Notes under the pieces: generated by a model | The model's input: the letters and a program-made list of their open reading frames with translations, nothing else | Told to the model about the DNA's origin: nothing | Databases searched by the model: none | Origin: a plasmid | Sequence record: NZ_CP033968.1 | Length of the DNA stretch: 64,000 nt | Direction: 5' to 3' (one strand) | Made by a program: the position numbers and the translations under genes | Shown: piece after piece, positions 21,937-40,446 of the stretch | Layout: the number at the start of each line of letters is the position of its first letter | How positions within the stretch are numbered: the first letter of the stretch is position 1

Positions 21937-21950
21937 CCGGAAGTGTCGTG

Positions 21951-23676: not shown

Positions 23677-23722
23677 GAGGGTCGGCCGGAATTCGTGAAA
23701 TTTTCGCCAAAGTGATCTTAAG
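23677..23722 (+). repeat. Transposon terminal inverted repeat, left (Tn3-family type: GGGTC tip ... TTAAG inner end)
   Basis: Direct sequence comparison with 39372..39417. Confidence 0.85.
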
Positions 23723-24051
23723 TATTTGATCCGAAATGAGAAAGCCATTCTCCACCTCGGGCCAAGGTGCCGTTCCCTAGTCTTACTTCGCCTAATCTGA
23801 CGGTGTGGGTATCGTGAAAATCCGCCACACCTCCACATCTCAGCTAACCCGATAATTGGAAAGGAAACTTCGGTTCCGATGCGCGCTAGCGGGGCAGACG
23901 CCGGTGGCTGTCAAGGCAGGGCGGCGTAGCAACTTTGCCGCCGACACCAAGAGCCGAGCAGTGCAGCGCTAGAGTGGCCGTAGTAGCAGCAGCGCGTTCT
24001 TGGTAATCCCATCAAGCTCTGTACATTGTGGGGATTCGACATCAAAATATT

Positions 24052-24934
24052 TCAAGATCCACTCTCATCCGGACGAAGGTGAGCATGCTGTTTAGTGCTC
24101 CATAATTCGGCCCAAGATTGGACTTGCTCTGCTGGCATGGGCTTGGCGACAAAATACCCTTGTGCAACGTCACACCCTATAGCTCCCACGTAGTCCCAGT
24201 CTGCCTGATCCTCTACACCTTCGGCAACGATGCGCAGGCCGAGTCGGTGAGCCAGAGATACTGTAGCCTCTATGATTGATTGGGAAATCGCTTTGCCTTC
24301 ATGGCCGGCATTACGCACGAAACTTCGATCTAATTTAAGTTCAGTGAAAGGGATATCTCTTAATTTGGTCAAAGTCGAATGACCAGTGCCGAAATCGTCA
24401 ATTGACAGGGTTACCCCCATGAGCTTAAGTCGGGCCAGCACTTCAAGCGATACAATCGGGTTAGCCATTATCTGCGATTCGGTAAGCTCGATCGTCAAAC
24501 ATGAGATATCAGCTCCTGCCGCGGCGGCATCCTCCAAGTCATCAAGAAATCCGAATGTGCTAAGGCTTTCCATCTGCACGTTCAGTGCAATCGGCAAGTC
24601 GAAATCCAAGTCCTGCCAGCTTTTCGCCTGAAGGAGCACTTGGGCAAGCATCGACTTGTCCAGTAATCTGGCATGGCCATGAGCCTCAACAGCATTCATA
24701 AATTGCGAGGCTGGCAAAACGCCACCGTGTGAGTGCTTCCATCGTGCCAGCGCCTCAACGCCAACCAGCGTCGCATTCGCCAAGTCGACCTTTGGCTGGT
24801 AATACGCGACAATTTCAGACTCTTCAATCGCGGCCTCCAGATCTGCACTTGTAAAGCGGGGTGCTGGTATCTTGGGCGGACGCCAGGCAGGCCCAAGCCT
24901 TCTATCGCGCAGGACCCTCTCCAACGACGCCTTA
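24052..24934 (-). pseudogene. EAL-domain (c-di-GMP phosphodiesterase) half of an IS-split REC-EAL response regulator (RocR/PvrR-like)
   Basis: EAL signature YQPK....EALARW, ELTES, DDFGTG.S, EGVE...Q. Reading frame is open up to the IS5 insertion point. After removing 918 bp (IS plus one TSD) it is in phase and contiguous with the REC half (...LPKPVTK|ASLERVLRDRR...). Confidence 0.85.
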
Positions 24935-24943
24935 GAGACTGTT

Positions 24944-25732
24944 TCAAAAAGACGGCTCAGCGCGCCTGAAGATGTTCCAGCAGACGAGAGAGCAGCCGAG
25001 TTTTAGGAACGCTTCGTGAATGTCGGCTCGACGTTCGAAGCGAATGCGAAGACGACGAAAGTTGTGAAGCCACGCGTGAGTACGTTCGACAACCCAGCGG
25101 AATTTGCCCAAGCCACTGCCGTGTTCTGTCCGGCGCTTGGCGAGCACCGGTTTGATGCCGCGCTCGCGAAGCCGCTGACGATGCGGCTCGGAGTCGTAGC
25201 CACGGTCTGCGTAGATGACTTTGGGCTTTTGAAGCGGGCGACCGCGCACGCCGCGAATTGGCGGGATCGCGTCGACGAGCGGCAGCAGTTGGGTGACGTC
25301 GTTGCGGTTCGCCCCGGTCAGGATTGCGCTGATGGGGACGCCATTTGCGTCGACGAGGATGTGATGCTTGGAACCTGGTCGCGAGCGATCCGTGGGGTTC
25401 GGACCAGTTTTTCGCCCGCCCCAACGGCTCGCACAGACGATGAATCGACGGCTGCTCGGGAGAAGTCGAGTTCGCCGGCCTCGCGTAACTTCGCCAGCAG
25501 TAGCTCGTGCAATCGCTTCCAAACGCCGGCCTTCTGCCAATCGCGCAAGCGCCTCCAGCAGGTCGGCCCCGACCCGAATCCCAACTTGGTCGACAGGTCG
25601 CACCAGCGTATGCCAGTCTTGAACACGAACAGGATGCCGTTCAGTGCAGCCCGGTTCGAAACCGGGAGCCGCCCTGGATATTTCTTGCGTCGCGGTTTCG
25701 GCGGCGGCAGCAAAGGTTCGATCAGTGCCCAC
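24944..25732 (-). CDS. IS5-family transposase OrfB (DDE domain)
   Basis: 262-aa ORF with DDE_Tnp_1-like motifs (ILVDANG...YADRGYDS...ERTHAWL). Overlaps OrfA in the -1 frame. Confidence 0.8.
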   Translation of the reverse strand: MGTDRTFAAAAETATQEISRAAPGFEPGCTERHPVRVQDWHTLVRPVDQVGIRVGADLLEALARLAEGRRLEAIARATAGEVTRGRRTRLLPSSRRFIVCASRWGGRKTGPNPTDRSRPGSKHHILVDANGVPISAILTGANRNDVTQLLPLVDAIPPIRGVRGRPLQKPKVIYADRGYDSEPHRQRLRERGIKPVLAKRRTEHGSGLGKFRWVVERTHAWLHNFRRLRIRFERRADIHEAFLKLGCSLVCWNIFRRAEPSF

Positions 25733-25761
25733 AGTTCATCATCAATGATCGGCGCGCTCAT
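25318..25761 (-). CDS. IS5-family transposase OrfA (HTH, N-terminal part of frameshifted transposase)
   Basis: 147-aa ORF DDELWALIEPLLPP...GRLPVSNRAALNGILFVFKTGIRWCDL, typical of IS427/IS5 OrfA. Confidence 0.75.
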   Translation of the reverse strand: MSAPIIDDELWALIEPLLPPPKPRRKKYPGRLPVSNRAALNGILFVFKTGIRWCDLSTKLGFGSGPTCWRRLRDWQKAGVWKRLHELLLAKLREAGELDFSRAAVDSSSVRAVGAGEKLVRTPRIARDQVPSITSSSTQMASPSAQS

Positions 25762-25852
25762 CCCCTCGGTTCCAGTTGTTCAGATGGCCAAGGTTAACAG
25801 CTTGCCGAAAAGGTTAACAGCCCCCCGGGGCTCTTTTTGAAACGGTCTCTTA

Positions 25853-26205
25853 GTAACCGGCTTTGGCAAGCTGGCGATAACCTGTAGTCCGTGCAATTTG
25901 GCAAGCTGCTCCGCAGTCTGGAGAATTCCCGCGCCTTCACCGCTGACCAGTAACAGGGCACCGGTATAACCGGCGGCGGAAAGGTGGCGGAGGAATTCGA
26001 TGCCGTCCATTTCGGGCATCTGCAGATCTGCGATCACTAACCGAAATGCACGTGGCTCTTTTTGGATCAGCGCGAGGGCACCATTGGCCCGTTCAAATGT
26101 AGTAACCTTGTCGTAACCAATCTGCTCAAGCTGCCGGCTCAGCAGTCTGAGGCTGAATACATCATCGTCAATAAGAGCAACTTCCGCGGCAAGCGTGGTT
26201 TTCAT
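25853..26205 (-). pseudogene. Receiver (REC) half of the IS-split REC-EAL response regulator
   Basis: ALIDDDVFSLRLLSRQLEQIGY...LVIADLQMPEMDGIEFLRHL...LLVSGEG: phospho-acceptor Asp and the full REC fold. Frame runs into the IS right end, where it terminates. Confidence 0.85.
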
Positions 26206-29200
26206 TGTAAGTTCCTTCCTTCGGCTATCGCTATGCTAGCCTGAATCTCGTGCTGCAATGTTGAAAGTGCATGCGTAACTCGTAATGCCTCGTCCTCGAA
26301 CGATGCAAGAAGCTCGCCCAAGTCCAAATCCTCCTTGCAGGCGCGCTCTATTTGCGTGCAAAGCTCGCCCAAGGACAAAGCGCCAACCGATCGCGAGGAG
26401 GACTTCAACCGGTGAGAGAGGTAGCTGGCCTCGTTGCGGTTATCGTTTCTCAGTGCCTGATGCAGTCTGGGCTGCATCTCTCGCAGTTGTTCAGCATAGG
26501 CAGATAGCAATTCAGAAACGACCTGGGGATCGTCGCCGATCATCTCATGAAGAACAGACACATTCATGGAGCGGTCGTACCCTCTTTGCTCTTCCTGAGT
26601 CAGTACAGCGCCCCGTGACGCAGGCTTAAGCCATCGTTCGAGAGCGGCTTTCAAGCTATTGAGATGCAGTGGTTTGGTCAGGTAGTCGTCCATGCCTGCC
26701 GCTAAGGCACGTTGTTTCTCGCCAAGCATGGCATTGGCTGTCAGTGCCACAATTGGCGTCTCCCCGCCATTGCCCTCGGCATCCCGGATCGCCCCAACTA
26801 GCGCGTAGCCGTCCATGATTGGCATGTGTATATCGGTCAGGATCAGTCCATAGTGGGACCGTCGCCACTCCTCAATCGCTTCGGCACCGTTGTTCACCAA
26901 TTTGGCTTGGTAACCGAGAAGCTCCAATTGAGCACATATCACTTTCTGGTTGATAGGATCGTCTTCAACAACCAGGATCTTGCTAGATTCGGCGGCCGAT
27001 GTCCGATGGTGTTTGGCGGTCATTTCATCGCGCTTGGCAGCAGCGGGTGCTATCGGGAACGAAAGCATCGCTGAAAAGGCCGAACCGATCCCGACCTCAC
27101 TTGTCACCGAGATCTGTCCGCCCATGGCTCTGACTAAACGCTGACAGATCGCCAAGCCCAGGCCTGTACCGCCGTAGCGCCGCGTGGTCGACGCTTCGGC
27201 CTGCGTAAACGGCTCGAACAGATGAGGAATCGCATCGCCTGCGATGCCGATGCCGTTGTCCGTCACAGAGAAAGTGATGGTTTGCGCGGCAGGTTCTCCT
27301 TCGCTGGCTCCAATAACATCGACGCTGATCTCTACAGATCCCGCTACCGTCGGTCGGCCGGTCGAAAACTTGATGGCGTTGCCGACCAGGTTATACAGCA
27401 CCTGACGCAAGCGCGTTTCGTCTGCAAGTACCCATTCAGCCACGTTGTCTGAGACACCACAATGCAGACTGACATCTGCTGCATTGGCCACAGGAAGCAG
27501 GGCAAGATACACTCCCTCCACGACTTGACGCGGTGACACGGGGTTGCTTTCAATTTCCATTCGCCCCGCTTCAATCTTGGAGAAATCGAGGATGTCATCA
27601 ATGAGACGAAGCAGCGTTGCAGCAGACTGGCGGATCGTCGAAGCGATATCGGATTGATTCTCGCTTAGCCCACTGCGACTTAACACCTCGATCATGCCGA
27701 CCACTCCATTCATTGGTGTCCGAATTTCATGGCTCATGGTCGCTAGGAAGGCGCTCTTCGCTCGCGACGCGGACTCTGCCTCGGCTTTGGCGAGCAACAT
27801 CTGGTCACGCGCGGCGCGGATGTCGGTGACGTCACGCGCAATCGCATAAATATACCCATCCGGTTCTCGTACTGCATTCCAGGCCAGCCAACGATATGTG
27901 CCATCCTTGCAGACGTAGCGGTTCTCAAAATGCTCAGCTAGCACTCCGACATTGCTCGAGGCCACAATCTCAAAGGTTCGCGGGCGGTCTTCCGGATGGA
28001 CGAAATTAATATAGGGCTGGCGGGCAATTTCGTCAGATGTCCACCCCAGAACTTGGGTAAAGGCACGGTTCACACGTTTTAGATAACCGTCTTCGCTCGC
28101 GATGCACTGCAAGTCTATCGATAGTTCGAAAAACCGATCCCGCTGGGTTTCGGCCATTCGGCGGGCACTTATATCCTGCAGGAGCACCAGTGCTGAAGAT
28201 TCACCGTCCCAGTCATAAGGCACCGCTGTTACCTCACATTCCAGTAAGGAGCCGTCAAGGCGTATCCAACGCTCCGCGGTGGTTGGCACACTGATGCGCT
28301 GCTTGCGTAGCAAACTAATGCGTGATTTGACCAGGTCACGGTCCGTGCAATGGACTAGTTCGAGGATGTTTCGATCCAGCAGTGCATCAACGGAAGACGC
28401 CCTGAGCATACTGACGGCCATTGGGTTGGCGTAGCAGATCTTGTCGTTGCGTTGCACGATGACGGCATAGGGCAAAAACTCGATGAGTCTGCGATAACGA
28501 TCCTCGCTTGCTTGAAGGGCCTTCTCCGCAGCACGTTCGACGCTGACATCGCGCATCACCAGCACGGTGCCCTGGAAAACCCCGGCATCATTGCGCAGAG
28601 GCGCCGCGCCAAGAATGATGTCAACTGGTGTCCCTCTTGCTGCGCCATGCAGCGTCAAGTCTGAGCGGTTAAGCGGTAGCCCGGTGCGCGAGACCTCGCT
28701 GACGGGATCCACGAAGGTCCCACCATCGTCTGCGCATGTCAAACGCAGTACTTCGGTCACCTGTCTGCCTACCGCCTCGCCCCATCCCAGACCGATGAGT
28801 TGGCTGGCCATGCCGTTTATACGCTTCACGTTTCCCACTGCGTCCGTGGAAATGACCGCATCGCTGATGGCATGCAATGTGATGTGAAGATCCCGCTCGC
28901 TTTCCTGTAAATCGGCGTGGCTGGTGATATCGCGGATGAGCAGCAACGTTCCGCCATCACGGCGCGAATCGACCTGGATTTCATACACAACAGTCGTTTG
29001 ATCGGCGATAGGGAAAATCAGTGTTTGTTTTTCTTCTCCTTGCAGAGCCTCGCAAAGCGACTGTACCTTGGATGTTCGATCGAGGCTGCCGTCATGCCGA
29101 AAGAGCGTTTTGGCAACGCTCTCAATTCGAGTCCCTATCAGTTCTGCCCGGCTAGCCTCTAGAAGCAGCAGCGCATGGCTATTGAGGCCGTCGACGCACC

Positions 29201-29360
29201 CGCCCCTGTCAAATCCCATTGCCGGATAGGGAATCGCCTGGAAAAGTGCATCAATGCGCTCAGCCTTTCCCATTTCACGGTCTCTGGCGGCGTTTGCGGC
29301 GAGCGTGGCGCCGAGCATGCTATCCATCAGGGCGGTCTGCTTTGCACGGGCTGACCTTGC
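26202..29360 (-). pseudogene. Hybrid sensor histidine kinase (PAS x3 - HisKA - HATPase_c - REC - HPt), cytoplasmic part; the N-terminal sensor part is separated from it by an IS3-family insertion (RocS1-like)
   Basis: MSHEIRTPMNGV H-box; HATPase G-boxes ([15 protein letters not shown]); REC (ILVVEDDPINQKV...DIHMPIMDG); C-terminal HPt (SHRLKSSSRSVGA). In-frame translation stays open upstream of Met 29327 all the way to the IS3 boundary, so the native start is missing. Confidence 0.85.
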
Positions 29361-29391
29361 CCCTGTTCCACGAATCCCATAACCGAGGGAA

Positions 29392-30285
29392 TTAGGCAGC
29401 CCGGTGTTGCTGAGCTGCGGACCAGTTTTTCTCGAACGTCATGGGGCTGACGTAGCCCAGCGTCGAGTGGAGTCGGCTGGCATTATAAAAGCCAAGCCAG
29501 TCAATTACCTCGTCCATTGCGGCGCGGCGGGTAGCGAACTGGCGACCGTGCAGGCGAGCGACCTTCAACGACCCCCACAGACTCTCAGTCGGCGCGTTGT
29601 CCCAGCAATCGCCCCTGCGGCTCATTGACGAGCGCATGCCATACGCCTTCAGGGCGTCTTGAAACAGATGGCTGCAATACTGGCTTCCCCGGTCGGTGTG
29701 CACAATCACACCGGCTTCCGGGCGGCGCCGGAACCAGGCCATGCGCAGCGCGTCCGTGACCAATTCGGCCTTCATGTGTGGTTGCATCGACCAGCCAACC
29801 ACCTGCCGGCTGAACAGGTCGATGATGACCACCAGGTAGAGCCAGCCTTCGGCGGTCGCCACATAGGTTATGTCGCTCGTCCAGACTTGATTGGGTGCTG
29901 CTGGGCTAAAGTCGCGTTGCAGCAGATTGGGGGCCACCGGCAAATCGTGGTTCGAGTTGGTTGTCGCGATGTACTTGCGCTTGTGGCGGGCACGGATGCC
30001 GTGCAGCGCCATCAGCTTGCGAACACGCTCCTTGCCCACCCGCACCCCACGCGCCAGCAGTTCCTTCCACATGCGCGGCCAGCCGTACTCCCCCTTGACC
30101 CCGGCGTGAATCGCCTTGATGTGGGCCAACAAGGCATCGTCACTGAGTCGGCCTCTATCTGGCCTGTCGGTGCTTACTGTGCGTTGCTTGCGCTGGTGAT
30201 AGCCGCTGGGGCTGACCCCTAACAGCTCACACAGGACCGAGACCGGCCAGTAACGTCGGTTTCGCTCGATGAACGCATACCTCAC
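29392..30285 (-). CDS. IS3-family transposase OrfB (integrase core)
   Basis: 297 aa; VWTSDITYV...IDLFSRQVVGW...HTDRGSQY...DNAPTES DDE motifs. Confidence 0.85.
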   Translation of the reverse strand: MRYAFIERNRRYWPVSVLCELLGVSPSGYHQRKQRTVSTDRPDRGRLSDDALLAHIKAIHAGVKGEYGWPRMWKELLARGVRVGKERVRKLMALHGIRARHKRKYIATTNSNHDLPVAPNLLQRDFSPAAPNQVWTSDITYVATAEGWLYLVVIIDLFSRQVVGWSMQPHMKAELVTDALRMAWFRRRPEAGVIVHTDRGSQYCSHLFQDALKAYGMRSSMSRRGDCWDNAPTESLWGSLKVARLHGRQFATRRAAMDEVIDWLGFYNASRLHSTLGYVSPMTFEKNWSAAQQHRAA

Positions 30286-30581
30286 ACCGACTCCTTCGCA
30301 AAGTATGCTGCGGCTTTTTTTAAAATATCGCGCTCCATCTTCAAGCGCGCCACCTCCGCCCGAAGCCGGGCCAGCTCCATCTGCTCCGGGCTGACCGGCT
30401 TCATACCCGCACCAGTCAGCTTGCCTTCCCGCTCCGCCTTGACCCAGTTATGCAGCGTCTGCGCTCTGATGCCCAGGGTCGCGCTAACCACTGCCATGCT
30501 CTGCCCGCTCTTCACCAGCCGTACCGCTTCCAGCTTGAATTCCAGCGTGTACTGCGCCCGCTTTGTCTTGCTTGTCATCAC
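30282..30581 (-). CDS. IS3-family transposase OrfA (HTH)
   Basis: 99 aa; RAQYTLEFKLEAVRLV...LGIRAQTLHNWVK HTH_Tnp_1 plus coiled-coil. Confidence 0.85.
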   Translation of the reverse strand: MMTSKTKRAQYTLEFKLEAVRLVKSGQSMAVVSATLGIRAQTLHNWVKAEREGKLTGAGMKPVSPEQMELARLRAEVARLKMERDILKKAAAYFAKESV

Positions 30582-30636
30582 ATCTCTCCTTGCTTCAGTT
30601 TAACCTCAGCAAGGGATTCGTTTTGCGGGGGCAAGC

Positions 30637-31500
30637 TCAGGCATATAAAATCAGCGCCGTCATCAAGATTCCTACGATGAGCAGAAAGGTGCGTCGCGCA
30701 CGATACCCGGCAAGGTACTCTGGTTCGGAGAGGCCAACTGCTACAGCGAGCGGGTAATCTTTGATCGATCGGAAGGCGATGGCCTGGGTCGTACCGTCCA
30801 CGAAACTGGGACCCCGAAAATTTCCAGCGGTGGAAGACGCCGCAAATGCCCGTCCTAAAGCGCTAGTTAATGGGATTTTCGCGCCGAAGTGCGAGTCCGG
30901 GTACGAGCGTTCTGCCCGTATGATGAAATCCCTTGCACCAAACACCAGTACCTGGCCATGTTCTCCCACTCTCAACTGATCGAACAACTGTATCAGGTAG
31001 GCCGGGTCCAGGGAAACCACTACCACGCCGAGGAAATCGCCCTCACTGTCTTCAATTCGCTTGGATAACTGAATGGATGGTTTGCCGCTCGCGCGGCCAA
31101 TGAGAGGCTCACTGATATACAAGCCGGATGCCGGAGCATTAACGTGCGCGCGAAAATGCGGCCTGTCACTAAGATCAACTGGCTTGAATCCTGGGACGGT
31201 GGAGGCTCGCAAAATGCCACGCTGATCGATTACTGCAACTTGCAGAAATAGGCCTAACTGGACCGCTTTTGCCTGGACATAAGGGACCAAGGCTATATTA
31301 GGCCCAGATTTCAGCACTTCCTGCGTGACCATCCAGGCCAGTTGATCCGCTTGTCGCAGCACACGGGTTGTGTGTGCTGCTAAGAGATCGCTTAGTGCAG
31401 CAGCCCGTTCTTCAGCAGCATCCCGCTCCGAGTCCTGATCCCACATCATGGCCGACGCAAGGGCGACCCACAATGCCAGTACGAGCATCCCTCCCCGTCC
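30637..31500 (-). pseudogene. N-terminal periplasmic sensor domain (Cache-like) plus TM helix of the IS3-split hybrid kinase
   Basis: Signal/TM (MLVLALWVALASAMMW), extracytoplasmic domain of about 250 aa, then a second TM (RTFLLIVGILMTALILYA). Terminates at the IS3 boundary. Start coordinate uncertain. Confidence 0.6.
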
Positions 31501-32219
31501 TAGGGCTCTAAAGTGTTTCTTGTTTAACAATTGATCGTGTGGTCCGCTGGCGGACGGTCGGTGGTGCCAGACTGTTGGCAGTACTTTGAACTTTAGAGTG
31601 ATTTTACTAACAATGCGTGGTGGTGACCAAAACGGTGCGGAGGGCAAAGCAGGACGGGGAGGAAGGGCATAAATCCACTCCAATAGCCGCAAATGATGCA
31701 ACCAAAAGCGTGCCATGAGCGGTGCCGCCCGCGGCCAGAGCAGTATCGCCAGCACCGTGGTGACGTTGAATGTGGCGTCGTTGTCACTGTGCAGCACGGC
31801 TTAGCCGCCATGGCGTCAATACTCTCGGCCTGCGCTGTGTGCGTTTGACCGGATGCGTGGCATAGTCCGCGTCGTCGCGATGAATACCCACCGCGCTTCC
31901 GCGCCGACGTTCCAATTGGTCACAATACCCGCCGGCGAAAACATGAAAATCGCGTCGTCAGTGACGCCCTGAACCAGAATCCGGAACTGCCCCTCTGTTT
32001 CGCGGGTGCCGACCTGGCTAGTGTCTTCTCTACATGTTTGCGCCTACAAGTCCCCCGAAGACTCAGTTCCGGTTTGACGCTTCGGAGAGTTGAACTGTCC
32101 CACTAAACTGCCTGTGTGGTGCAATGTGCATCTACGAGCGCCAGGTTACCGGTAGCGGAACTGTTTCTTGGTAAGTCTTCGAACTACAGCTTCATTCTTA
32201 AGCCCATCGACCGATGTCC

Positions 32220-32809
32220 CTATGCATCGTCGCCTGCCGTTGCGTGGCCCATTTGCACGGTGTGGAACCGCGACTCCGCTTCGCGGAACAGCAACTTAAC
32301 CTTGTCGACGTCCCAGGGCCGTTCGGCCAAGGTCTCATGATCCCACTGACTGCGGGGCTCGGTCGGATGGAAGAAGTCACCACCATAGACGTGGATGGCG
32401 CACGTCATCTTGCCGATCGGATTCAGCACAGAATGGATCGCCTCCCGGTCGAGCACAGCGACGTCGCCCACTCCAAGAGATCTAGCTGTCGTTGCCTCGA
32501 TACCCGATGCCGTCCGCCGCCAGAAGACATTATCCTCGCGTCCCGCATAGATGCCCACTGCCGAGAACATCCGGTGATTGTGGGGCATGAGGCTCATGCA
32601 CGGTGCCCAGACGAAATTGATGACCGTGACCTCGGGCGAGGTGTAGAGCGGTAAGAGGCCGGCGTGTTCCGGCTCGCCGAGCCCGGCGAAGATACCGGCG
32701 CCGTCGGCAACAGCTTCTGCCACCACCTCGCGCACGGCCTGCGAGCCTTCGGCGACGGCCTTGACGCAATCCTCGATGAAGCGGTCCTTATCGAACACGA
32801 TCCTAACCT
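32220..32809 (-). CDS. Cupin-fold thiol dioxygenase-like protein (cysteine dioxygenase type / COG5553 family)
   Basis: 196 aa from GTG 32809 (AGGAGG RBS). His-x-His cupin motif LMPHNHRM plus downstream His (AIHSV). Conserved VINFVWAPCMSLMP and HVYGGDFF strands. Confidence 0.6.
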
Positions 32810-33352
32810 CCTGCGCTGAGTTTTTGGTCCGAGATCGTCCCGCATTCGAACCGCGCGCTCGGAGCGGAATGATGGCATTCCCGCGTTCGTCGATCGGGTA
32901 CGCATATTTGAAAAAGGCGGCCGGGAGCCGTTCCTGTCCTCCAGGAGGGCGACAGCCAAGGCCGAGTTGCAAGAGCAGGCCGGCGGACAGGTTTCGGAGC
33001 CCTGCCTTTGCTCGAACGACTGGGATGCCAGGCCAGCGAACGACAACTCTTGGCTGGGAAGCGGCCTTCGAGGTTCGAAGTGGCCATCGATCTGCGACGA
33101 CACAAGTCCCGGGTCATGCTCGCAGTATAGATGTGCGGGGAGACCAATGGGTTCCGACATGAGCTTTGGCGCGCCGTGATCGATGAGCGCCGCATTGGGG
33201 CAACGGCGGTGCGTACGCCTGTAGGTAGTCGCGCAAGCGCGGCGCTTTGGGCAGTGCGCATGGCGGCGGCGCCCTCCAGCGCAAACCGGCGAGGCCGATC
33301 CATTCGAGGCCGATGGTCCGAGCGATTCACGAACGCCAGGGCCAATACGCGC

Positions 33353-34537
33353 CTACTGTGGCGGGGCGGGCGCGGTGGGTGGTTGAGCTTGTTGCTCGCC
33401 CACGGTGTGCGCATGCCGCCGGTCGTCCTCGGCGTGCAGGTAGATGCCGGTCGTCTCGATCGAGGCGTGCCGCAGGTTCTTCTGAATAAAGCGGATATCG
33501 GTACCCGCGTCGGCCTGGTGCGAAGCCGCGGAATGGCGCAGCCAGTGCGTCGAGGCACGCGCCAGCGTCGCCGCGCCGGCCGGATCGCTCGCCTCCAACA
33601 CGGCGGCCGCCCGCCGGAACACTTCCTTCGCGATCAGATAGACCGCCGTCGGCGTGAGGTGCCGCTGCGCGTCCCCGGCGACGCTCAGGATGGCCGGGCT
33701 CAGGTCACCGGGCCCCGGCATCGGCGGCAGGCCGTGGAACGCGCGATAGCGAGCAAACTCGGCCATCAACGCGTCGCTCACTGGTACCTCGCCCTCGGCG
33801 CCGCCCTTGCCGACAACGTACAGCCACCAGCGCCCGCGCCGCTGGACAAAGTCGGCTGCCTTCGCGTGGGCGGCTTCGCTCGCGCGCAGCGCCGTATGGT
33901 AGAGGAAGCGCATCACCCAGCGGCTGCGCTCGTAATGCTGGCACTCGCGCGGCGTGCCCTGCGGCCAGCCCTCCATCGACGCGAGCACCACCTGCCACAG
34001 CGCATGATCGAGATAGCGCTCGACGCGTCGCGCGCGCGAGCCACGCGTTGAACGGCTGCGGCGCAGGGCAAGCGGATTGCCTGCGAGGTAGCCGGCCGTG
34101 ACAAGGTAGTCCAACAGACCCGAGAGGATGCCGAGCGCTTGACGGCGGCTGCCCTCGGCGAGCGGCCCCCCGAACAGGCGCCGAGCGCCGCCGCGGCGCG
34201 GCAGCGCCGGGTCGATCCAGTCCGCCGTTGGCGCGGCAAGGAAACGTTCGTACAGGAGGAAATCCTCGCGCGTGAGGCTAGAGAGCGGCTTGCCCAACGT
34301 GCGCGTTGCCCAGATGAGCAGCCGTACTACTTCCTTTCGGTAGCTGCGCAGCGTGTGCGGCGAGCTGGCGTACTCGGCAAGCCACAGGCGTACGGCCTCG
34401 ATATCGGTGTCGGCGGCGATCTGGCGGTGGCCGCCGCGCGCGCGGTTGGTACCGTCATGGCCGTCGAGTGCGGCGGGCAGCGCGACGAGCAGAAGCGATT
34501 CGGGGGCTGGGGCAGGCAGGTTCATGGGGTTCCGCAT
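33353..34537 (-). CDS. tnpS: Tyrosine recombinase, TnpS-like (cointegrate resolvase of Tn4651-type transposons)
   Basis: 394 aa; catalytic R...HWLRHSAAS...R..GIYLH (R-H-R-Y tetrad region). Divergent from a TnpT-like gene with a 133-bp palindromic intergenic res-like region. Lies inside the Tn3-family element. Confidence 0.7.
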   Translation of the reverse strand: MRNPMNLPAPAPESLLLVALPAALDGHDGTNRARGGHRQIAADTDIEAVRLWLAEYASSPHTLRSYRKEVVRLLIWATRTLGKPLSSLTREDFLLYERFLAAPTADWIDPALPRRGGARRLFGGPLAEGSRRQALGILSGLLDYLVTAGYLAGNPLALRRSRSTRGSRARRVERYLDHALWQVVLASMEGWPQGTPRECQHYERSRWVMRFLYHTALRASEAAHAKAADFVQRRGRWWLYVVGKGGAEGEVPVSDALMAEFARYRAFHGLPPMPGPGDLSPAILSVAGDAQRHLTPTAVYLIAKEVFRRAAAVLEASDPAGAATLARASTHWLRHSAASHQADAGTDIRFIQKNLRHASIETTGIYLHAEDDRRHAHTVGEQQAQPPTAPAPPQ

Positions 34538-34670
34538 CGTACACCTAGTAACCTTACGATTATGCGCGTTATCGTAAATTTCTACGGCTTGTGATTACAG
34601 ATATAACGTAATACGATCATATACATCAGTCAGATTCACGAAATTCCACCCTCTCAGCCCGCTTCCGCCC
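34538..34670. promoter_or_regulatory. Putative res/recombination site and divergent promoter region between tnpS and tnpT
   Basis: AT-rich segment containing the inverted repeat TTACGAT-N10-ATCGTAA plus additional ACGTAATACGAT half-sites. This position corresponds to the res site in TnpS/TnpT-type transposons. Confidence 0.5.
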
Positions 34671-35618
34671 ATGAGCCGTATCAGCGATACCCGTCTACGC
34701 ACCCGCGACGCCGCCGCGCGCTTGGTTTCCGCGGGCCGGCACCCGCATGAACTCACCGTCGACCTGATCTACGCCGAGATCCGCCAGGGCAGCCGCACCA
34801 CCATCAACGACGAGCTGAAGCTGTGGAAGGACGAGCAGGCGCGCAACGACGCGCTCTCCGCCGCACTGCCGCCAGCAGTCGCCAACGCCATGCTGTCGGT
34901 CTGGGCGTTGGCCGTCGAACAGGGGGAACAGGTCTTCGCGCAGCGCAGCGGGGAGTTTGAGGCCGAAGCGACCGCCGCCATCACGCGCGCCGAATCGCTG
35001 CAGGCCGCCAACACAGGGTTGCAGGCGGAAGTGCAAACGCTTCGCGCCCAGGTTGACGACCTGCAGGCGCGGCTCGCTACCGCGCTGGCCGCTCACGCCC
35101 GGGGCCAAGCCGAACTGGAGGCTGCCATCCGACGGGCCGAAGCCGCCGCGGCTGAGGGCGATGCCGTGCGCGCGCAAGCAGAGCAGGCCTTGCGCGAAGC
35201 GCAGTCCGCCCATGCCCGCGAACTGGAAGCACTGCGGACCGCCCGCGCCGAACACGAGGCCGCCCTGCGGGTGGAGGTCGACCAGGCTACCGCCCGGCTC
35301 GAAGGCGTGCAGAAGCTCGTCATGCTGCAGACCGAGGAAGCGCGCGAAGCCCAGCGTCGCGCGGAAGCTGCCCTTGCGAAGACCCGCCAGCGCAACGAGC
35401 AACTTGTGGCTGACGGGCAGCGGCTCAGCGCCGACGCTGCTGAACACCGCCGGCTGGCCGAACGGCATGAAAAACAGCTCGCCAGTGTCATGGAAGAGAC
35501 GCGCGAACTGCGGCGTGAGCGCGATTCCCTGACCCAACAGGTCGCCCTGCTGCAGGGCCAGCTCAAGGGTCGCGACGAGTCTGCGCCAGCGCGTACAGCC
35601 AGGCGTCGCGCCGGCTGA
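34671..35618 (+). CDS. tnpT: TnpT-like recombination accessory protein (KfrA-N-like DNA-binding head plus Ala/Glu/Arg-rich coiled coil)
   Basis: 315 aa; N-terminal LVSAGRHPHELTVDLIYAEIRQGSRTTINDELKLWK resembles KfrA_N. The remainder is a long alpha-helical AEAR repeat region. Orientation and position match Tn4651 tnpT. Confidence 0.6.
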   Translation: MSRISDTRLRTRDAAARLVSAGRHPHELTVDLIYAEIRQGSRTTINDELKLWKDEQARNDALSAALPPAVANAMLSVWALAVEQGEQVFAQRSGEFEAEATAAITRAESLQAANTGLQAEVQTLRAQVDDLQARLATALAAHARGQAELEAAIRRAEAAAAEGDAVRAQAEQALREAQSAHARELEALRTARAEHEAALRVEVDQATARLEGVQKLVMLQTEEAREAQRRAEAALAKTRQRNEQLVADGQRLSADAAEHRRLAERHEKQLASVMEETRELRRERDSLTQQVALLQGQLKGRDESAPARTARRRAG

Positions 35619-35713
35619 GCCAACAGCGAGCAACGGTTTTCGGACTACCGCGGAGCGCGTCAGCGCCCGCGCTACAATCGGGCCTTCGGTCATCGCCTGC
35701 GGGCGCTGGACCG

Positions 35714-36190
35714 ATGCAGTGCCATGAGCAACCGCCCGACAGGAAACCGAGCCTCATGAACACGAACGAACCACAGCCACCAGCCTGGCAGCCGATCGCT
35801 GCGCTGCCGGTCATTCTGGATCTCGCCGGCGCGCAGATTGATGAGGTACAGGCCACCTTCGACGCCCTGACCCGGTGCCGGTCGCGACCCCATGTGCTTG
35901 ACGACGCCACCCTGGCCCGGACGCGCCAGGTCTACGGCGAACAACGGGATTTTCTGCCGATCCAGCGCGAGCAGGTGGCACGGTGGCGATCCGGGCCGCT
36001 CACACCGCAGGAGCGCGAAGCCCTTGCTCATCTGAGCGCGCGGATCGACCGGCTGGCGGCGCTGCTCGACGATCTGCTCGCGCTGGCAGACGAGCTGTCG
36101 CACGGCACGATCGACCGGATCATGGGCATGAGCGATGCGGACCTTGCCACTGCGGTGTTATCGGGCGCGCTCAGATTGCCGCAACGCTGA
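35714..36190 (+). CDS. TnpC-like small protein upstream of tnpA (possible transposition regulator)
   Basis: About 145-158 aa ORF directly between tnpT and tnpA, co-oriented. No recognisable catalytic motif. Assignment by position only. Confidence 0.35.
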   Translation: MQCHEQPPDRKPSLMNTNEPQPPAWQPIAALPVILDLAGAQIDEVQATFDALTRCRSRPHVLDDATLARTRQVYGEQRDFLPIQREQVARWRSGPLTPQEREALAHLSARIDRLAALLDDLLALADELSHGTIDRIMGMSDADLATAVLSGALRLPQR

Positions 36191-36241
36191 CAGGCGGAAA
36201 ATGCAGCAACGGTACCGGCTGGCTCGATTCGCGCGGCACCT

Positions 36242-39223
36242 ATGAACCAGATTTCCGAAACCGCGTACCCGTTACTGCCAGCGGAGATCACCGCAGACGA
36301 GTTGCGGGCAGTCTACACGCCCAGCGCCGCCGAAATCCGCTTCGTGTATGGCCAGTTCCGGCAAGCGCCAACACGCGTGCTGATTCTGACGCAGCTCAAA
36401 CTGCTTCAGCGTCTGGGATACATGCCGCCAATGTCAGACGTGCCACCCGAAATCGTCGCCCATATTTGCTCGGTGCTCAAGGTCCGATCGCCGCCCCGCA
36501 CGACAATCAAGCGCTATGACAGGTCGGGCAGCAAGTCTCGGCACCAGAAGGTGCTGCGCGAATTTGTCGGCATCCGCGTCGTTGATGCGCTTACCCATGA
36601 ATGGCTTGCTGTCGTCGCGGCCATCGCGGCGCGCACGAAGGCAGAGTTGCCGGACATCATCAACGTTCTGCTCGAAGAGCTCATCAGGCAGCGCTACGAA
36701 CTGCCGCCGCTGGCAACCCTCTCGCGCATTGCGGCTTCCGCCCGCAGCCGGCTTCACGAGACCATCTACCAGGCCTTCTCCGACGCGTTGGACGAACCGC
36801 TCAGAGCCCGCCTCGACGCTCTCTTCAGCAACCGGGCGGGACGCACGCCCTGGGACGAACTGAAGCGGGAACCAAAACGGCCGAGGCCGCGCGAGGTCGC
36901 AAGCTTCCTCAAACACATTCAGGCCTTGAACGAGCTGGCCGACGGCCTACCGCCGCCGCCGGAAATGCTCTCGGTCCCCAAGCGCATGCAACTCGTCCTT
37001 GAAGCACGGGCCCTCGACGTCCATGAGATGCGCATGCTCAAGCCGGCGAAGCGCTACACGCTTGCTGTGCTATTCATCCTCGCGCAGCTGCAGAAGGCAC
37101 TTGATGACGTCGCGGAAATCTTCATCAAGACGGTCCGCAACCTGGAAGGCACGGCGGAACTGCGCATGAAACAGTATCGGCTGGCGCACGCTGACGAGCT
37201 CGAATCGCTCGTCAGTCAGTTTCGCGATGTGCTCCACATCCTGCAAGACGACGAGGCGCCGCCCGCCGAGCGCATTGCGCGCATGAGGGCATCCCTCAAT
37301 GACGATCCCGGCAACGCCCTGAGCCGATGCAACGAGCACATCGCATATACCGGCAATCACGCCATCCCGTTTCTGCTGGCCCCATACAGGAATCTGCGGT
37401 CACTGCTGTTCCAGTGCCTCGATCTCCTGTCACTGCGCTCGAGCTCCCAGGACGATGCCCTGCTCGGCGCGCTCGCTTGGGTCCAGCAATACCGGGCCTC
37501 ACGTCGCGAATACCTGCTGCTGGGCGACGCCGACCTCGCAGAGCTGCCGCTCGACTGGATGCCAGAGAAGTGGGAGAAATTTGTCTTCCCGGACGGGCGG
37601 ACCGCCCGACTGCTGCACCGGAAATATTTCGAGTTATGCGTGTTCAGCCAGCTCAGGCGTGAACTCAACTCCGGGGACGTTTACGTCGAGCACAGCGACC
37701 AGTACGATGATCCCCGCGAACACCAGGTATCGTGGGACGAATTCCGCGAAGAACTGCCGCGCTATGGCGAACTCGTCGACTTCCCGGTCGATAGCCGGGC
37801 CTTCGTCCAGCAACTGAAGGACCAACTCAGCGCACTGGCCGACGAGGTCGACGCTGCCTTTCCGGAGAACGACTACGTCGAGATTGGCGACCAAGGTCTG
37901 ATTCTCCACAAGCTCGAGAAGAAGCCCGACCCGCCAAACAAGATGTTAATCGACCAGGCCATCACGGCGTCGATGCGGCCGGTCAGCATCCTTGACATCC
38001 TGACCGAAACCGAACAGTGGCTCGACCTGCACCGGCTGTTTGGCCCGTTATCCGGCTTCGAGGCGAAGATCGACGAGCCGCGCAAGCGCTTCATCACGAC
38101 GCTGTTCTGCTATGGGTGCAATCTCGGACCGGCGCAGACGGCGCGCTCGGTAAAGAACCTCAGCCGCAAGCAGGTCGCCTGGCTGAATCTGCGCCACGTG
38201 ACCGAAGAGCGCCTGGACAAGGCCATCGTCCGGGTCATCAACGCCTACAACCAGTTTGCGTTGCCGAAGTTCTGGGGTTCCGGAAGCCGAGTTTCGGCCG
38301 ACGGCACGAAATGGAATCTCTACGAGCAAAATCTGCTGTCCGAATATCACATCCGGTACGGCGGCTATGGCGGTATTGGTTACTACCACGTGTCGGACAA
38401 GTACATCGCGCTCTTCAGCCACTTCATTCCGTGTGGCGTGCATGAAGCCGTCTACATCCTCGACGGGCTGATCAAGAATACCTCCGACGTGCAGCCGGAC
38501 ACGGTCCATGGCGATACCCAGGCGCAGAGCGCGCCGGTCTTCGCACTCGCACACCTGCTCGGCATCAAACTAATGCCCCGCATCCGCGACATCAAGGAAC
38601 TGCGCTTCTACAAAGCGGACCGGCGCCGTCGCTACACCAACATCGAATCACTGTTCCGCGGCAACGTCGACTGGGCCCTCATCGAAAGGCACTTGTCGGA
38701 CATGCTGCGCGTCGCCATCTCAATCAAAGCCGGCCGGATGACGCCATCGACGATCCTGCGGCGCCTCGGCTCCGAGAGTGTCAAGAACAAGCTGTATTTC
38801 GCGTTCCGCGAGCTCGGGCGGGTAATCCGCACGCTGTTCCTGCTGCGCTACATCAAGGACCCCGAAATGCGCCGGACGATCCATGCCGCGACGAACAAGA
38901 GCGAACAGTTCAACGATTTTGCGAAATGGCTGATGTTCGGCGGTGACGTCATCGCGGAAAACGTCCGGCACGAACAGCGCAAAGTCATCAAGTACAACCA
39001 GCTCGTCGCGAACATGGTCATCCTCTACAACGTGCAGTGGATGTCGCGCAAACTGAAGGAGTTGCAAATGAAGGGCCATCCTGTCGACGCCGAGGTGCTC
39101 CAGGCGCTGTCGCCTTACCGGAAGGACCACATCAACCGGCTCGGGTCTTATTTGGTGGATCTCCAGCGGAAGGTGCCGCCGCTCGATACGTCGATCGATT
39201 TCGTTTTCGGATCGGCGGCATAG
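36242..39223 (+). CDS. tnpA: Tn3-family transposase TnpA
   Basis: 993 aa; N-terminal DUF4158-like region and C-terminal DDE_Tn3 core (...GSGSRVSADGTKWNLYEQNLLSEYHIRYGGYGGIGYYHVSDKYIALFSHFIPCGVHEAVYILDGL...). The 3' end lies 149 bp from the right terminal repeat. Confidence 0.9.
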   Translation: MNQISETAYPLLPAEITADELRAVYTPSAAEIRFVYGQFRQAPTRVLILTQLKLLQRLGYMPPMSDVPPEIVAHICSVLKVRSPPRTTIKRYDRSGSKSRHQKVLREFVGIRVVDALTHEWLAVVAAIAARTKAELPDIINVLLEELIRQRYELPPLATLSRIAASARSRLHETIYQAFSDALDEPLRARLDALFSNRAGRTPWDELKREPKRPRPREVASFLKHIQALNELADGLPPPPEMLSVPKRMQLVLEARALDVHEMRMLKPAKRYTLAVLFILAQLQKALDDVAEIFIKTVRNLEGTAELRMKQYRLAHADELESLVSQFRDVLHILQDDEAPPAERIARMRASLNDDPGNALSRCNEHIAYTGNHAIPFLLAPYRNLRSLLFQCLDLLSLRSSSQDDALLGALAWVQQYRASRREYLLLGDADLAELPLDWMPEKWEKFVFPDGRTARLLHRKYFELCVFSQLRRELNSGDVYVEHSDQYDDPREHQVSWDEFREELPRYGELVDFPVDSRAFVQQLKDQLSALADEVDAAFPENDYVEIGDQGLILHKLEKKPDPPNKMLIDQAITASMRPVSILDILTETEQWLDLHRLFGPLSGFEAKIDEPRKRFITTLFCYGCNLGPAQTARSVKNLSRKQVAWLNLRHVTEERLDKAIVRVINAYNQFALPKFWGSGSRVSADGTKWNLYEQNLLSEYHIRYGGYGGIGYYHVSDKYIALFSHFIPCGVHEAVYILDGLIKNTSDVQPDTVHGDTQAQSAPVFALAHLLGIKLMPRIRDIKELRFYKADRRRRYTNIESLFRGNVDWALIERHLSDMLRVAISIKAGRMTPSTILRRLGSESVKNKLYFAFRELGRVIRTLFLLRYIKDPEMRRTIHAATNKSEQFNDFAKWLMFGGDVIAENVRHEQRKVIKYNQLVANMVILYNVQWMSRKLKELQMKGHPVDAEVLQALSPYRKDHINRLGSYLVDLQRKVPPLDTSIDFVFGSAA

Positions 39224-39371
39224 AGGAATTCTGGATACCGGGCCGCTCCTGCACGGGGCAGTTCAGCTGCTGACACATCCGTACGCGATAGCTGCGTCAC
39301 GGCTCGGCATCGCCCACACAACCGTGCCTTGGCCCGAGGAAGAGAACCACTTTTACGTTTCGGATCACATA

Positions 39372-39417
39372 CTTAAGGCAACTTTGGCGAAAATTTCACG
39401 AATTCCGGCCGACCCTC
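39372..39417 (-). repeat. Transposon terminal inverted repeat, right
   Basis: Reverse complement matches 23677..23722 (35/35 outer nt identical, inner TTAAG conserved). Followed by the GTTCA direct repeat. Confidence 0.85.
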
Positions 39418-40446
39418 GTTCAGGCTATCTGCGACGAGGCCAGGGTATGCCGGATCATCTGGCACAAAGCCACCACCGGTCCGTGACGAACGCACGACGA
39501 CGATGCCTTGCCCCATCGCCTTTTTGATGGAGGGGATGGCGCGCAGCGAAACACTACCGGCGCCTACACCTGAGGCAATGATGCCTTTGATGCCGTTGTT
39601 TGCTGCGGCTTCGTACATGAATCCGGAGTCACTTTGATAGTGCGCGATCACCGCGACTTCGGGCAAGACATCGAGTTTTGCGACGTCGAATGGCGTGGCT
39701 TTGGTGTGAGGCTTTGCCGTGGTGGTTTCGAAGTAGGGGACTTGATCGACCAGTGTTCCGAGGTAGCCCGCGTCCTGCCCCTTGAAGGTGTCCAAAGAAT
39801 TGGCATTGGTCTTCGTGACATACCGCGCAGCGCCAATACGATCATTCAACACGATCATGACACCGCGTCCGCGGGCAGACGGGGCTGCGGCGACCGTAAC
39901 GGCCTGGAGGATGTTACTGGGCCCATCCGCGCTAATCGCCGTCGAGGGGCGCATCGCGCCGGTCACGACCACCGGCTTGTCGCTCTTGACCACCAGATTC
40001 AGGAAGTAAGCCGTCTCCTCCAACGTGTCGGTGCCGTGTGTGATGACAACGCCGGCGATATCGGGCTGCGCCAGGAGGGCGTTCACGCGCTTTGCGAGTT
40101 TCAGGAGAATCTCGTTGGTCATGTTGTCACTGCCAACGTTTGAGATCTGTTCACCCGACACGCGTGCGACTTTTTCGAGCGATGGCACGGAACGAAGCAG
40201 CGCGTCGGCGGTCAGCACGCCAGAGGTGTATGCGGTCGTTTGGGTCTCGCTTGCGCCGGTACCCGCGATGGTGCCTCCCGTAGCCAGCACCGCCACACGG
40301 GGCAATGCAGCTTCTGTGGGCTGGGCATGCGCACCCGTCGAAAGCGTAGCGGCAAGGATGAAGCATTGAGTAATCAGCCAGCGAAAACGGCCTGGAAGGG
40401 TGCGTTGTTGTGTCACAGAGTGCTCCACTGATTTCAGTTTGAACAT
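39418..40446 (-). pseudogene. ansB: L-asparaginase II (periplasmic), N-terminal 343 codons. Interrupted after ...VADSLN by the transposon. The ORF-track C-terminus [13 protein letters not shown] is encoded by the transposon repeat
   Basis: Signal peptide, TGGTIAG and HGTDT active-site motifs, GVVITHGTDTLEETAYFLNL. Joining to 23676..23590 across one copy of the TSD restores ...[15 protein letters not shown]... Confidence 0.85.

Follow-up and report, generated by a model that had tools for sequence, protein, structure and literature searches.

The window analysed here, a 64-kb stretch of a Cupriavidus pauculus plasmid (NZ_CP033968.1), contains a Tn3-family transposon whose cargo is a two-gene operon, a sensor kinase gene followed by a c-di-GMP phosphodiesterase (REC-EAL) gene. 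Each of the two genes is split by an insertion sequence (IS). The ORF products of this plasmid window correspond exactly to AZG11934-AZG11938.

The Tn3-family carrier and its insertion site

The transposon spans positions 23677..39417 (15,741 bp), or 13,532 bp once both IS and the extra copies of their target-site duplications (TSDs) are subtracted. It is bounded by imperfect terminal inverted repeats of 98 nt (23677-23774 and 39320-39417; 85% complementary), of which the outermost 37 nt are identical at both ends, and it is flanked by a 5-bp target duplication, GTTCA (23672-23676 and 39418-39422). Plasmid p1 of C. metallidurans BS1 (NZ_CP037902.1) has the corresponding site unoccupied, with one GTTCA only, and in contigs L088 and L089 the transposon end at 23677 is joined to other flanking DNA. 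Together with the 993-aa transposase gene tnpA (36242..39223, plus strand), whose product scores 712.8 bits against NF033527 (transpos_Tn3; cut-off 500) and covers 950 of the 954 profile positions, these features bear out the assignment to the Tn3 family made in the first-pass annotation.

Upstream of tnpA lie a 144-aa ORF (35756..36190, plus strand) and a gene for a DNA-binding protein in which a domain search identified KfrA_N (34671..35618, plus strand). The latter is divergent from a tyrosine recombinase gene with a Phage_integrase match (33353..34537, minus strand). We presume that the recombinase would act as the cointegrate resolvase of the transposon, and the KfrA_N protein as its accessory protein. 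Tn21 and Tn501 use TnpR, whereas the present transposon has this tyrosine recombinase module; its recombinase lacks DUF3701, a domain present in the recombinase of the C. laharis element. A transposition module with the same four components (tyrosine recombinase, KfrA_N protein, 144-aa ORF and tnpA) and 92.5% nucleotide identity is present on the C. taiwanensis plasmid NZ_CP016951.1, where the adjoining DNA carries porin, ABC transporter and MgtC genes and not the kinase/REC-EAL pair.

Two features of the element had been passed over previously. The transposon itself interrupts a type II asparaginase gene of the host, with the 5' part of the gene at 39418..40446 and the final 92 nt, stop codon included, at 23585-23676 (both minus strand); the gene is uninterrupted in NZ_CP037902.1 (350360-351475). 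The other is an additional 192-aa ORF in the cargo (32220..32798, minus strand), also called as a gene in contigs L085, L089 and L090, in which a Pfam search recognised no family.

ISRme13 splits the sensor kinase gene

The kinase gene, on the minus strand, is divided by ISRme13, an IS3-family element of 1288 bp with TG...CA ends (29352..30639, minus strand). The 5' gene fragment (30640..31530) encodes residues 1-283, comprising TM1, a periplasmic dCache_1 domain and TM2, and has two candidate starts: ATG 31488, used in the RefSeq model (1331 aa when restored), and TTG 31530 (1345 aa), which is the start annotated in C. necator and the point at which homology to C. laharis also begins. The 3' fragment (26202..29351), an exact match to AZG11936, encodes residues 284-1331 and holds four PAS domains, HisKA, HATPase_c, REC and Hpt. 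Its longest ATG-started ORF covers 26202-29327 (1041 aa), and the frame 5' of this ATG stays open up to the ISRme13 boundary. The IS is flanked by the TSD GGC (GCC on the minus strand; 29349-29351 and 30640-30642) and contains orfA (30581-30282) and orfB (30285-29392) in the same orientation as the operon, with HTH_Tnp_1 and rve domains in the products. Over its 1288 bp the element is 100% identical to ISRme13 of pMOL28, pMOL30 and other Cupriavidus plasmids.

With one copy of the TSD, ISRme13 measures 1288 + 3 = 1291 bp, which is 1 mod 3, the remainder that had been named beforehand for frame restoration. In silico removal of this length joins ...ALILYA/RAKQTALMDSMLG... in frame, and the restored kinase is 100% identical to WP_194946585.1 (1331 aa) of Cupriavidus sp. 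U2. Pfam places dCache_1 at residues 74-251, followed by the four PAS domains, HisKA (813-878), HATPase_c (926-1046), Response_reg (1074-1186) and Hpt (1229-1313); dCache_1, at 53 bits versus a cut-off of 45, is the sole periplasmic domain found. The phosphorelay motifs were located at H823, D1122 and H1262. The first-pass annotation had recognised the IS3-family interruption of a hybrid kinase gene, the open frame of the 1041-aa ORF and, beyond the IS, a Cache-like periplasmic domain with flanking TM helices, and all three observations stand.

ISJP4 splits the REC-EAL regulator gene

The ATG of the regulator gene, at 26205, overlaps the kinase stop codon (ATGA), so that kinase and regulator are probably translationally coupled. 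This gene, also on the minus strand, is interrupted by ISJP4, an IS5-family element of 915 bp (24935..25849, minus strand) that matches the annotated ISJp4 on pJP4 at 100% identity. The TSD, TTA, is at 24932-24934 and 25850-25852, and the inverted ends measure approximately 18-22 nt; because the target reads CTAAG, the end position is ambiguous by one base on each side. The transposase frames (25761-25318 and 25732-24944) have the same orientation as the operon, and a domain search found DUF4096 and DDE_Tnp_1 in the products. The 5' regulator fragment (25850..26205), an exact match to AZG11935, encodes residues 1-119, a REC domain that lacks helix alpha5: the gene is interrupted after K119, and the Pfam REC domain runs to residue 123. 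The corresponding ORF (25780-26205) continues for 22 codons into ISJP4, giving a total of 141 aa. Residues 120-411 and the stop codon are in the 3' fragment (24052..24934), which codes for REC helix alpha5, the linker and the complete EAL domain, and which appears in the database as a stand-alone EAL protein (AZG11934/WP_172965988).

In silico removal of 918 bp (ISJP4 plus one TSD) yields ...LPKPVTK/ASLERVLRDRR... without a stop. The 915-bp IS5-family element with its TTA duplication, and a fusion product of about 410 aa after its removal, had both been anticipated; the restored regulator has 411 aa and is 100% identical to WP_153949581.1 of Cupriavidus sp. U2. A domain search of the restored ORFs, which had been proposed as a check, returned REC and EAL for the regulator (Response_reg 9-123, EAL 149-383), alongside the dCache_1, PAS, HisKA, HATPase_c, REC and Hpt order of the kinase given above. 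Within REC, residues D13, D14, D60, S88 and K115 are invariant among 116 homologues. EAL loop 6 reads DFGTGHST versus the usual DFG(T/A)GYSS, a departure that could bear on activity; histidine at that position is the norm of this subfamily (105 of the 116). The combined match of IS ends, TSDs, restored frames and natural proteins is far beyond chance. The locus is a clean case of nested elements, made up of known kinds of IS, transposon and kinase/REC-EAL operon.

Relation to the Roc system and other acquired EAL genes

The pair had been described as RocS1/RocR-like, a likeness that holds for the architecture, for the best structural match and for the catalytic residues, but not for overall identity, the sensor, the RocA1 partner or gene order. 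As in RocS1/RocR of P. aeruginosa, a single operon combines an unorthodox H1-D1-H2 kinase with a REC-EAL regulator, and among solved structures RocR (PDB 3SY8) matches the restored regulator best, over its full length (383 residues aligned, E 5.8e-54). The seven catalytic and four substrate-binding residues of RocR, as listed in PMC2952852, are all kept: E178, N236, E267, E270, D297, K318 and E356 correspond to the catalytic residues E175, N233, E265, E268, D295, K316 and E352 of RocR, and Q164, R182, D298 and D320 to its substrate-binding residues Q161, R179, D296 and D318. Identity to RocR is 32% overall, with 28% in REC and 35% in EAL.

The RocS1 sensor consists of two periplasmic SBP_bac_3 domains and one PAS domain (PMC12051241), whereas the kinase described here has one dCache_1 and four PAS domains, and Pfam gave no SBP_bac_3 match in the restored protein. 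In the Roc system, RocA1 is encoded divergently and shares the kinase; by contrast, no RocA1-type DNA-binding regulator (GerE) was found when the larger ORFs of 23677-39417 were compared with Pfam or NCBIfam. The Roc genes are ordered rocR-rocS1, while here the kinase gene comes first and the regulator gene second, and the transposon has none of the cup fimbrial genes that are the targets of Roc. The transposon-borne pair sits in Burkholderiaceae, and Roc1 in Pseudomonas aeruginosa. Of 45 distant loci, 26 have an H1-D1-H2 kinase gene immediately upstream of a REC-EAL gene. The pair, with a kinase that resembles RocS1 in its H1-D1-H2 architecture, is better placed in this broad and widespread class of unorthodox-kinase/REC-EAL operons than in the Roc system.

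Tn21 and Tn501, also of the Tn3 family, likewise carry a passenger gene for an EAL-domain protein. To our knowledge, these EAL genes have neither a cognate kinase nor a REC domain, unlike the cargo here, which is a complete kinase plus REC-EAL phosphorelay. For the Tn21 EAL protein, function and biological role are still undemonstrated according to a review (PMC10333796). Two-component genes that include one for a REC-EAL protein (PvrR) are also found on an acquired element in P. aeruginosa PA14, where the PvrS/PvrR-RcsC/RcsB genes reside on PAPI-1 (PMC3842833, PMC2696094). We liken the two loci by description: PAPI-1 is an integrative island with four signalling genes and the cupD target cluster, whereas the present carrier is a Tn3-family transposon.

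IS-free relatives and the order of insertions

Uninterrupted copies of the operon occur in Cupriavidus sp. U2, C. necator and C. laharis and in contigs L085 (4 samples), L086 and L088. One contig of 13,518 bp, equal to the transposon minus both IS and less 7 nt at each end, carries an IS-free copy in which the 11.6 kb compared show no mismatch. The L085 and L086 copies match the window at 100% identity and lack precisely the two IS, as does the C. laharis locus, at 76% identity. Comparison with the C. laharis orthologues gives dN/dS values of 0.135 (kinase) and 0.088 (regulator), so that both genes have long been maintained as functional. Most copies elsewhere are intact and, by these ratios, have been under purifying selection.

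The first 29 nt of contig L087 (SRR31513849) are from the end of ISRme13 and form the junction that is seen in the window, and the regulator gene of this contig is uninterrupted, indicating that the kinase gene was hit first and the regulator gene second. The other ISRme13 junction was independently confirmed in L090. These copies show the disruption of the operon to be very recent and stepwise, starting with the kinase. The same contigs bear on whether the IS copies were simply misplaced during assembly or annotation, with both genes really intact in the strain. Multi-copy IS are a classic source of misassembly, but both insertions have perfect TSDs, the ISRme13 junctions on both sides recur in independent short-read contigs from other runs (L087 and L090), and a Logan assembly also contains the 141-aa ORF that fuses REC to the IS, making such an artefact very improbable.

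Consequences and origin of the double insertion

In the intact module, a periplasmic or PAS-sensed signal would lead to kinase autophosphorylation at H823, from where the phosphoryl group would be transferred to D1122, then to H1262 of Hpt and finally to D60 of the regulator, a relay that we infer. This would tune the EAL phosphodiesterase, the activity of which would lower c-di-GMP; from its architecture and catalytic residues, the phosphodiesterase is predicted to be catalytically competent when intact. Insertion of ISRme13 into the kinase gene directly after TM2, as the first step, would have cut the link between sensor and catalytic core and left the promoter separated from the remainder of the operon by 1.3 kb of IS. 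The second step, insertion of ISJP4 after K119 of the regulator, would have cut REC before helix alpha5 and separated it from EAL. Judged from its structure, the whole module is most likely non-functional in the present copy. Since the second hit occurred in an already broken operon, the simplest reading is ordinary decay in an IS-rich host. We therefore favour, with a probability of roughly 0.78, two recent sequential hops, of ISRme13 and then of ISJP4, that broke the operon as part of the ordinary IS-driven decay of dispensable cargo.

It is unlikely that the insertions were instead non-random, either as a selected stepwise dismantling of the phosphodiesterase relay or as a source of new stand-alone parts in the c-di-GMP network of the host. 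If either were true, the locus would offer a natural illustration of how resident IS elements edit signalling circuitry that was gained by horizontal transfer. All copies of ISRme13 and ISJP4 within the 64-kb window are in the one 5.2-kb operon, which is suggestive of non-randomness as a post-hoc observation that applies to this window.

Rewiring would mean that the split parts still act, as a membrane sensor, a soluble PAS kinase that has lost its sensor, a REC fragment and an EAL phosphodiesterase free of regulation, one outcome being a constitutive phosphodiesterase driven by IS read-through. ISRme13 lies precisely where TM2 meets the cytoplasm (after A283), and every cytoplasmic domain stays whole downstream of an in-frame ATG (M291). 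The 3' regulator fragment retains the entire EAL domain, and all four gene fragments are annotated as ordinary CDSs. Moreover, both IS point the same way as the operon, so that read-through transcription could possibly allow expression of the downstream fragments. However, there is no Shine-Dalgarno-like sequence ahead of ATG 29327, and those ahead of the TTG/CTG starts of the EAL fragment are weak. Neither IS has a promoter-like site at its outward end, with promoter counts overall equal to those of shuffles. In addition, the REC fragment is probably unstable without helix alpha5, and EAL without REC cannot receive the relay. Taken together, we regard rewiring as quite improbable.

Adaptive silencing, in which a foreign kinase and phosphodiesterase are costly via c-di-GMP homeostasis (biofilm or motility), would involve a knock-out of the kinase followed by removal of the residual unphosphorylated phosphodiesterase; we consider it unlikely too. 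The two hits in the operon are independent and were stepwise, with the regulator still intact after the first, and the EAL residues point to a phosphodiesterase that is potentially active even without the kinase. In metagenome scaffold L089, the same regulator gene has a different lesion, a net 125-nt deletion, but this scaffold contains Ns and the deletion may be an assembly error. The chance of both hits falling in 5.2 of the 13.5 kb of the transposon is approximately 0.15 and hence not significant, while the majority of observed copies are intact and dN/dS is well below 1. The regulator was also probably poorly expressed once the polar ISRme13 was in place, so that the second hit may have been neutral. 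As between selection and neutral decay, nothing distinguishes the two, and the data favour neither.

For the IS-driven decay that we favour, there is ample precedent in Cupriavidus of regulatory genes being inactivated by IS (PMC4803752). In C. metallidurans, inactivation of cnrYX by IS insertions was adaptive under zinc stress (PMC4803752), and in pJP4, ISJP4 truncated tfdT (PMC11507517). As in the operon described here, a resident IS disrupts regulatory genes on Cupriavidus plasmids in both cases, although the target genes differ.

Two insertion sequences split the kinase and regulator genes

On the minus strand between 23.7 and 31.8 kb we find the kinase/regulator operon as four ORFs of 386, 1041, 141 and 290 aa with two transposase-bearing segments between them. 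The first segment has 22-nt inverted ends (24931-24952 and 25832-25853), and base-level reading places the IS5-family element ISJP4 at 24935-25849 (915 bp), between two copies of TTA, which reads TAA in the coding direction. Pfam assigns its frames to DUF4096 and DDE_Tnp_1, and its sequence matches the ISJp4 annotated on pJP4 at 100% identity. The second is the IS3-family element ISRme13 (29352-30639, 1288 bp), which starts with TG, ends with CA, has 28-nt inverted ends and GGC flanks and encodes HTH_Tnp_1 and rve frames (Pfam); pMOL28 and pMOL30 are among the many Cupriavidus plasmids that carry copies 100% identical to it. No further copy of either element is found elsewhere in the 64-kb window, and both are co-oriented with the operon.

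ISRme13 parts the TM1-dCache-TM2 portion of the kinase from every cytoplasmic domain and moves the remaining operon 1.3 kb further from the promoter region. ISJP4 cuts the regulator after K119, ahead of REC helix alpha5, and separates REC from EAL; the Pfam REC match extends to residue 123, beyond the cut. Functional fission at a clean domain boundary was considered for the regulator and rejected, since the cut removes helix alpha5.

In public records, the four fragments (24052-31797) are annotated as ordinary CDSs: a cache domain protein, a PAS domain protein or 'RpfC', a response regulator and an EAL protein. These separately deposited CDSs are really pieces of two IS-disrupted genes, i.e. 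two pseudogenes, which is of practical use for annotation.

Excision restores a complete sensor kinase and a REC-EAL regulator

In silico removal of each element together with one copy of its target-site duplication (TSD), 918 bp for ISJP4 and 1291 bp for ISRme13, leaves two uninterrupted open frames. The regulator (411 aa) rejoins ...LPKPVTK to ASLERVLRDRR..., and the kinase (1331 aa from the ATG at 31488) rejoins ...ALILYA to RAKQTALMDSMLG.... An alternative TTG start at 31530, where homology to Cupriavidus laharis begins, fits a 1345-aa C. necator annotation. Pfam finds dCache_1, four PAS stretches, HisKA, HATPase_c, Response_reg and Hpt in the kinase, and Response_reg and EAL in the regulator. 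The first-pass annotation had described two IS elements splitting two genes whose frames and domains would reappear on excision; the mapped ends, TSDs, rejoined frames and domain content confirm this structure.

The first hydrophobic segment of the kinase spans residues 1-16, and a strong one at 267-283 lies directly ahead of the ISRme13 cut. The relay residues of an unorthodox kinase are H823, D1122 and H1262, and the kinase stop codon overlaps the regulator start. The regulator retains the REC acidic pocket, D60, S88 and K115 and, by sequence comparison, all EAL residues that define the active site in RocR (residue list from PMC2952852). Its EAL loop 6 reads DFGTGHST, with a histidine that is the subfamily norm (105 of 116 homologues). 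In comparison with C. laharis, the kinase has a dN/dS of 0.135 and the regulator one of 0.088, from which we infer that both genes were long maintained as functional. In the intact module, a signal-dependent phosphorelay to D60 would tune c-di-GMP hydrolysis, and loss of this regulated relay would be the straightforward consequence of two split genes.

Because both elements are co-oriented with the operon, read-through from them might instead express the fragments and rewire the module functionally. We consider this improbable, as no ribosome-binding or promoter-like signals support fragment expression. A consensus scan for promoters and terminators returned one weak -35/-10 match, approximately 110 nt ahead of the kinase ATG, with no match at the outward ends of either IS; the counts equal those of shuffled sequences, so that the scan weighs neither for nor against.

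Intact copies resolve the order of events

The four ORFs have exact matches in AZG11934-AZG11938, from a 312,343-bp Cupriavidus pauculus plasmid contig. To the same 90% clusters a Cupriavidus sp. U2 plasmid contributes two intact proteins, WP_153949581.1 (411 aa) and WP_194946585.1 (1331 aa), both of them exact substrings of the restored translations. At the DNA level, the contig L085 (SRR8668046; four samples) matches the window at 100% identity across 11.6 kb, skips both elements cleanly and has one TSD copy at each site. Its length of 13,518 bp is that of the transposon without the two IS and without 7 nt per end, as fits k-mer assembler output for a unit whose bounding inverted repeats are identical over 37 nt. 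A further copy, L086, also lacks both elements. By contrast with these IS-free copies, L087 (SRR31513849) has 29 nt of ISRme13 end sequence at its start, joined at the same point, and an uninterrupted regulator gene, showing that ISRme13 inserted first and ISJP4 second; L090 (SRR8180820) independently contains the opposite ISRme13 junction. There are zero substitutions between IS-free and IS-bearing copies, so both insertions are very recent. A megablast search of PLSDB plasmids matched the IS but not the cargo, and an exact query for the EAL fragment P0003 of the database gave no record.

The nested-element history is well resolved: empty plasmid site, intact transposon, kinase::ISRme13 and double mutant are four observed states with identical DNA, forming a natural time series. 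A complete sensor-kinase/c-di-GMP phosphodiesterase relay can evidently travel among Cupriavidus plasmids as Tn3-family cargo and be lost again with essentially no divergence in sequence. As a case of nested mobile elements this is tidy but ordinary, and neither a new mechanism nor a new type of system.

Ordinary decay is favoured over adaptive silencing

Two hits in one operon could reflect adaptive silencing of the module, and the first-pass annotation had suggested either selection against it, a reading that is unproven, or a mere IS landing pad. Two random hits would both fall within the 5.2-kb operon of the 13.5-kb transposon with a probability of about 0.15, most other copies of the operon are intact, and the second insertion landed in an operon that was already broken. 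Adaptive silencing is on these grounds unlikely, if slightly less so than rewiring by read-through. We favour ordinary decay, and put the probability of the loss-of-function account as a whole at roughly 0.78; the scaffold L089, with its run of Ns, was also weighed in this preference.

L089 (JGI 3300013375) carries the transposon at a different insertion site and without either IS. At its positions 8434-8442, corresponding to window 24418-24551, a net 125 nt are deleted from the regulator gene, giving a truncated 254-aa product (P0123), and its kinase gene has a 12-nt in-frame insertion at the position of window 27083. We rejected this copy as a third, independent inactivation: the apparent split of the kinase is a run of Ns, and the regulator deletion, like the other lesions, may be an assembly error, making it weak evidence of a third lesion.

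Insertional inactivation of regulators in Cupriavidus is already known (PMC4803752; PMC11507517), as are c-di-GMP genes on transposons and plasmids: Tn21 and Tn501 carry EAL genes, and c-di-GMP turnover genes occur on 6-10% of plasmids (PMC10333796).

Relation to the Roc system and to homologous pairs

The best solved-structure match of the regulator is RocR (E 5.8e-54, aligned 12-394), at 32% identity. RocS1 combines two SBP_bac_3 domains with a single PAS domain, the partner RocA1 is of GerE type, and the gene order is rocR-rocS1 (PMC12051241); the window pair has none of these three features (RocS1-type sensor, RocA1-type partner, gene order). The earlier label 'RocS1/RocR-like' thus holds for the combination of an unorthodox kinase with REC-EAL and for the RocR active-site residues, but not for the sensor, RocA1 or the gene order. 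On this comparison, the pair would work as RocS1 does towards RocR, yet is not a member of the Roc system.

The synteny of kinase followed by REC-EAL is widespread. Of 45 distant loci with a full-length REC-EAL homologue, 26 have an H1-D1-H2 kinase immediately upstream; conservation does not extend to the sensor part, a pattern that marks a cognate pair whose inputs are interchangeable. Close intact homologues were also sought among one-genome-per-species contigs, where the best match is just 48% identical and of use solely for synteny.

The C. laharis homologue of the pair (76% nt, 79% aa identity) adjoins a different Tn3-type module, with tnpA, TnpC_reg and a DUF3701 recombinase. On this contig (L081), the pair is bracketed by a direct repeat of approximately 200 nt (5652-5851 and 11576-11776, 78-94% identical) that corresponds to the 3' end of the DUF3701 tyrosine-recombinase gene, which suggests acquisition as a cassette by recombination beside the resolution module. 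The public record gives the C. laharis regulator the erroneous label 'Sensor histidine kinase RcsC'.

The Tn3-family carrier and its insertion site

The transposon is bounded by 98-nt inverted repeats (23677-23774 and 39320-39417; first 37 nt identical) with GTTCA flanks. Ahead of its Tn3-family transposase gene tnpA (36242-39223; NF033527, 712.8 bits) come a 144-aa ORF, a KfrA_N protein and, in divergent orientation, a tyrosine recombinase. The transposition module of a C. taiwanensis plasmid is 92.5% identical, but its adjacent genes differ (porin, ABC transporter, MgtC), and the ends of that element are unmapped. Terminus 23677 adjoins other DNA in L088, a further transposon copy, and in L089, showing that the transposon has moved.

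On plasmid p1 of C. metallidurans BS1 the flanks are contiguous, with a single GTTCA, within an intact type II asparaginase gene (NZ_CP037902.1, 350360-351475), so the window transposon interrupts that gene. The cut lies approximately 30 codons ahead of the stop (39418-40446 and 23585-23676, both minus strand), in a cluster of amino-acid ABC transporter, asparaginase, MFS, LysR and aspartate ammonia-lyase genes.

Besides the operon, the cargo comprises a 192-aa ORF (32220-32798, minus strand) between recombinase and kinase. It occurs in all IS-free transposon copies (L085, L089, L090) and is missing at the C. laharis locus; it matches no Pfam family even at E<=5, and a PHNH...H motif looks cupin-like by eye. 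Upstream of the kinase, a 75-aa ORF (31819-32043, minus strand) without a Pfam match starts out like a PAS domain (FRILVQGVTDDAIFMFSPAGIVTNWNVGAEA) before degenerating; judged by eye, this may be what is left of an earlier kinase gene.

Mobile elements are evidently abundant on the replicon. At approximately 4661-8180 lies a 3.5-kb multi-copy element with IS481-family/DDE transposase and AAA ATPase genes, of which CH34 pMOL30, the CH34 chromid and further Cupriavidus plasmids carry copies at 100% identity. The backbone is 100% (10653-23676) and 97.5% (39418 to approximately 59286) identical to BS1 plasmid p1, and its distal part, from approximately 47.7 kb, is approximately 97% identical to pMOL30. 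These identities indicate that C. pauculus and C. metallidurans have a common megaplasmid backbone.
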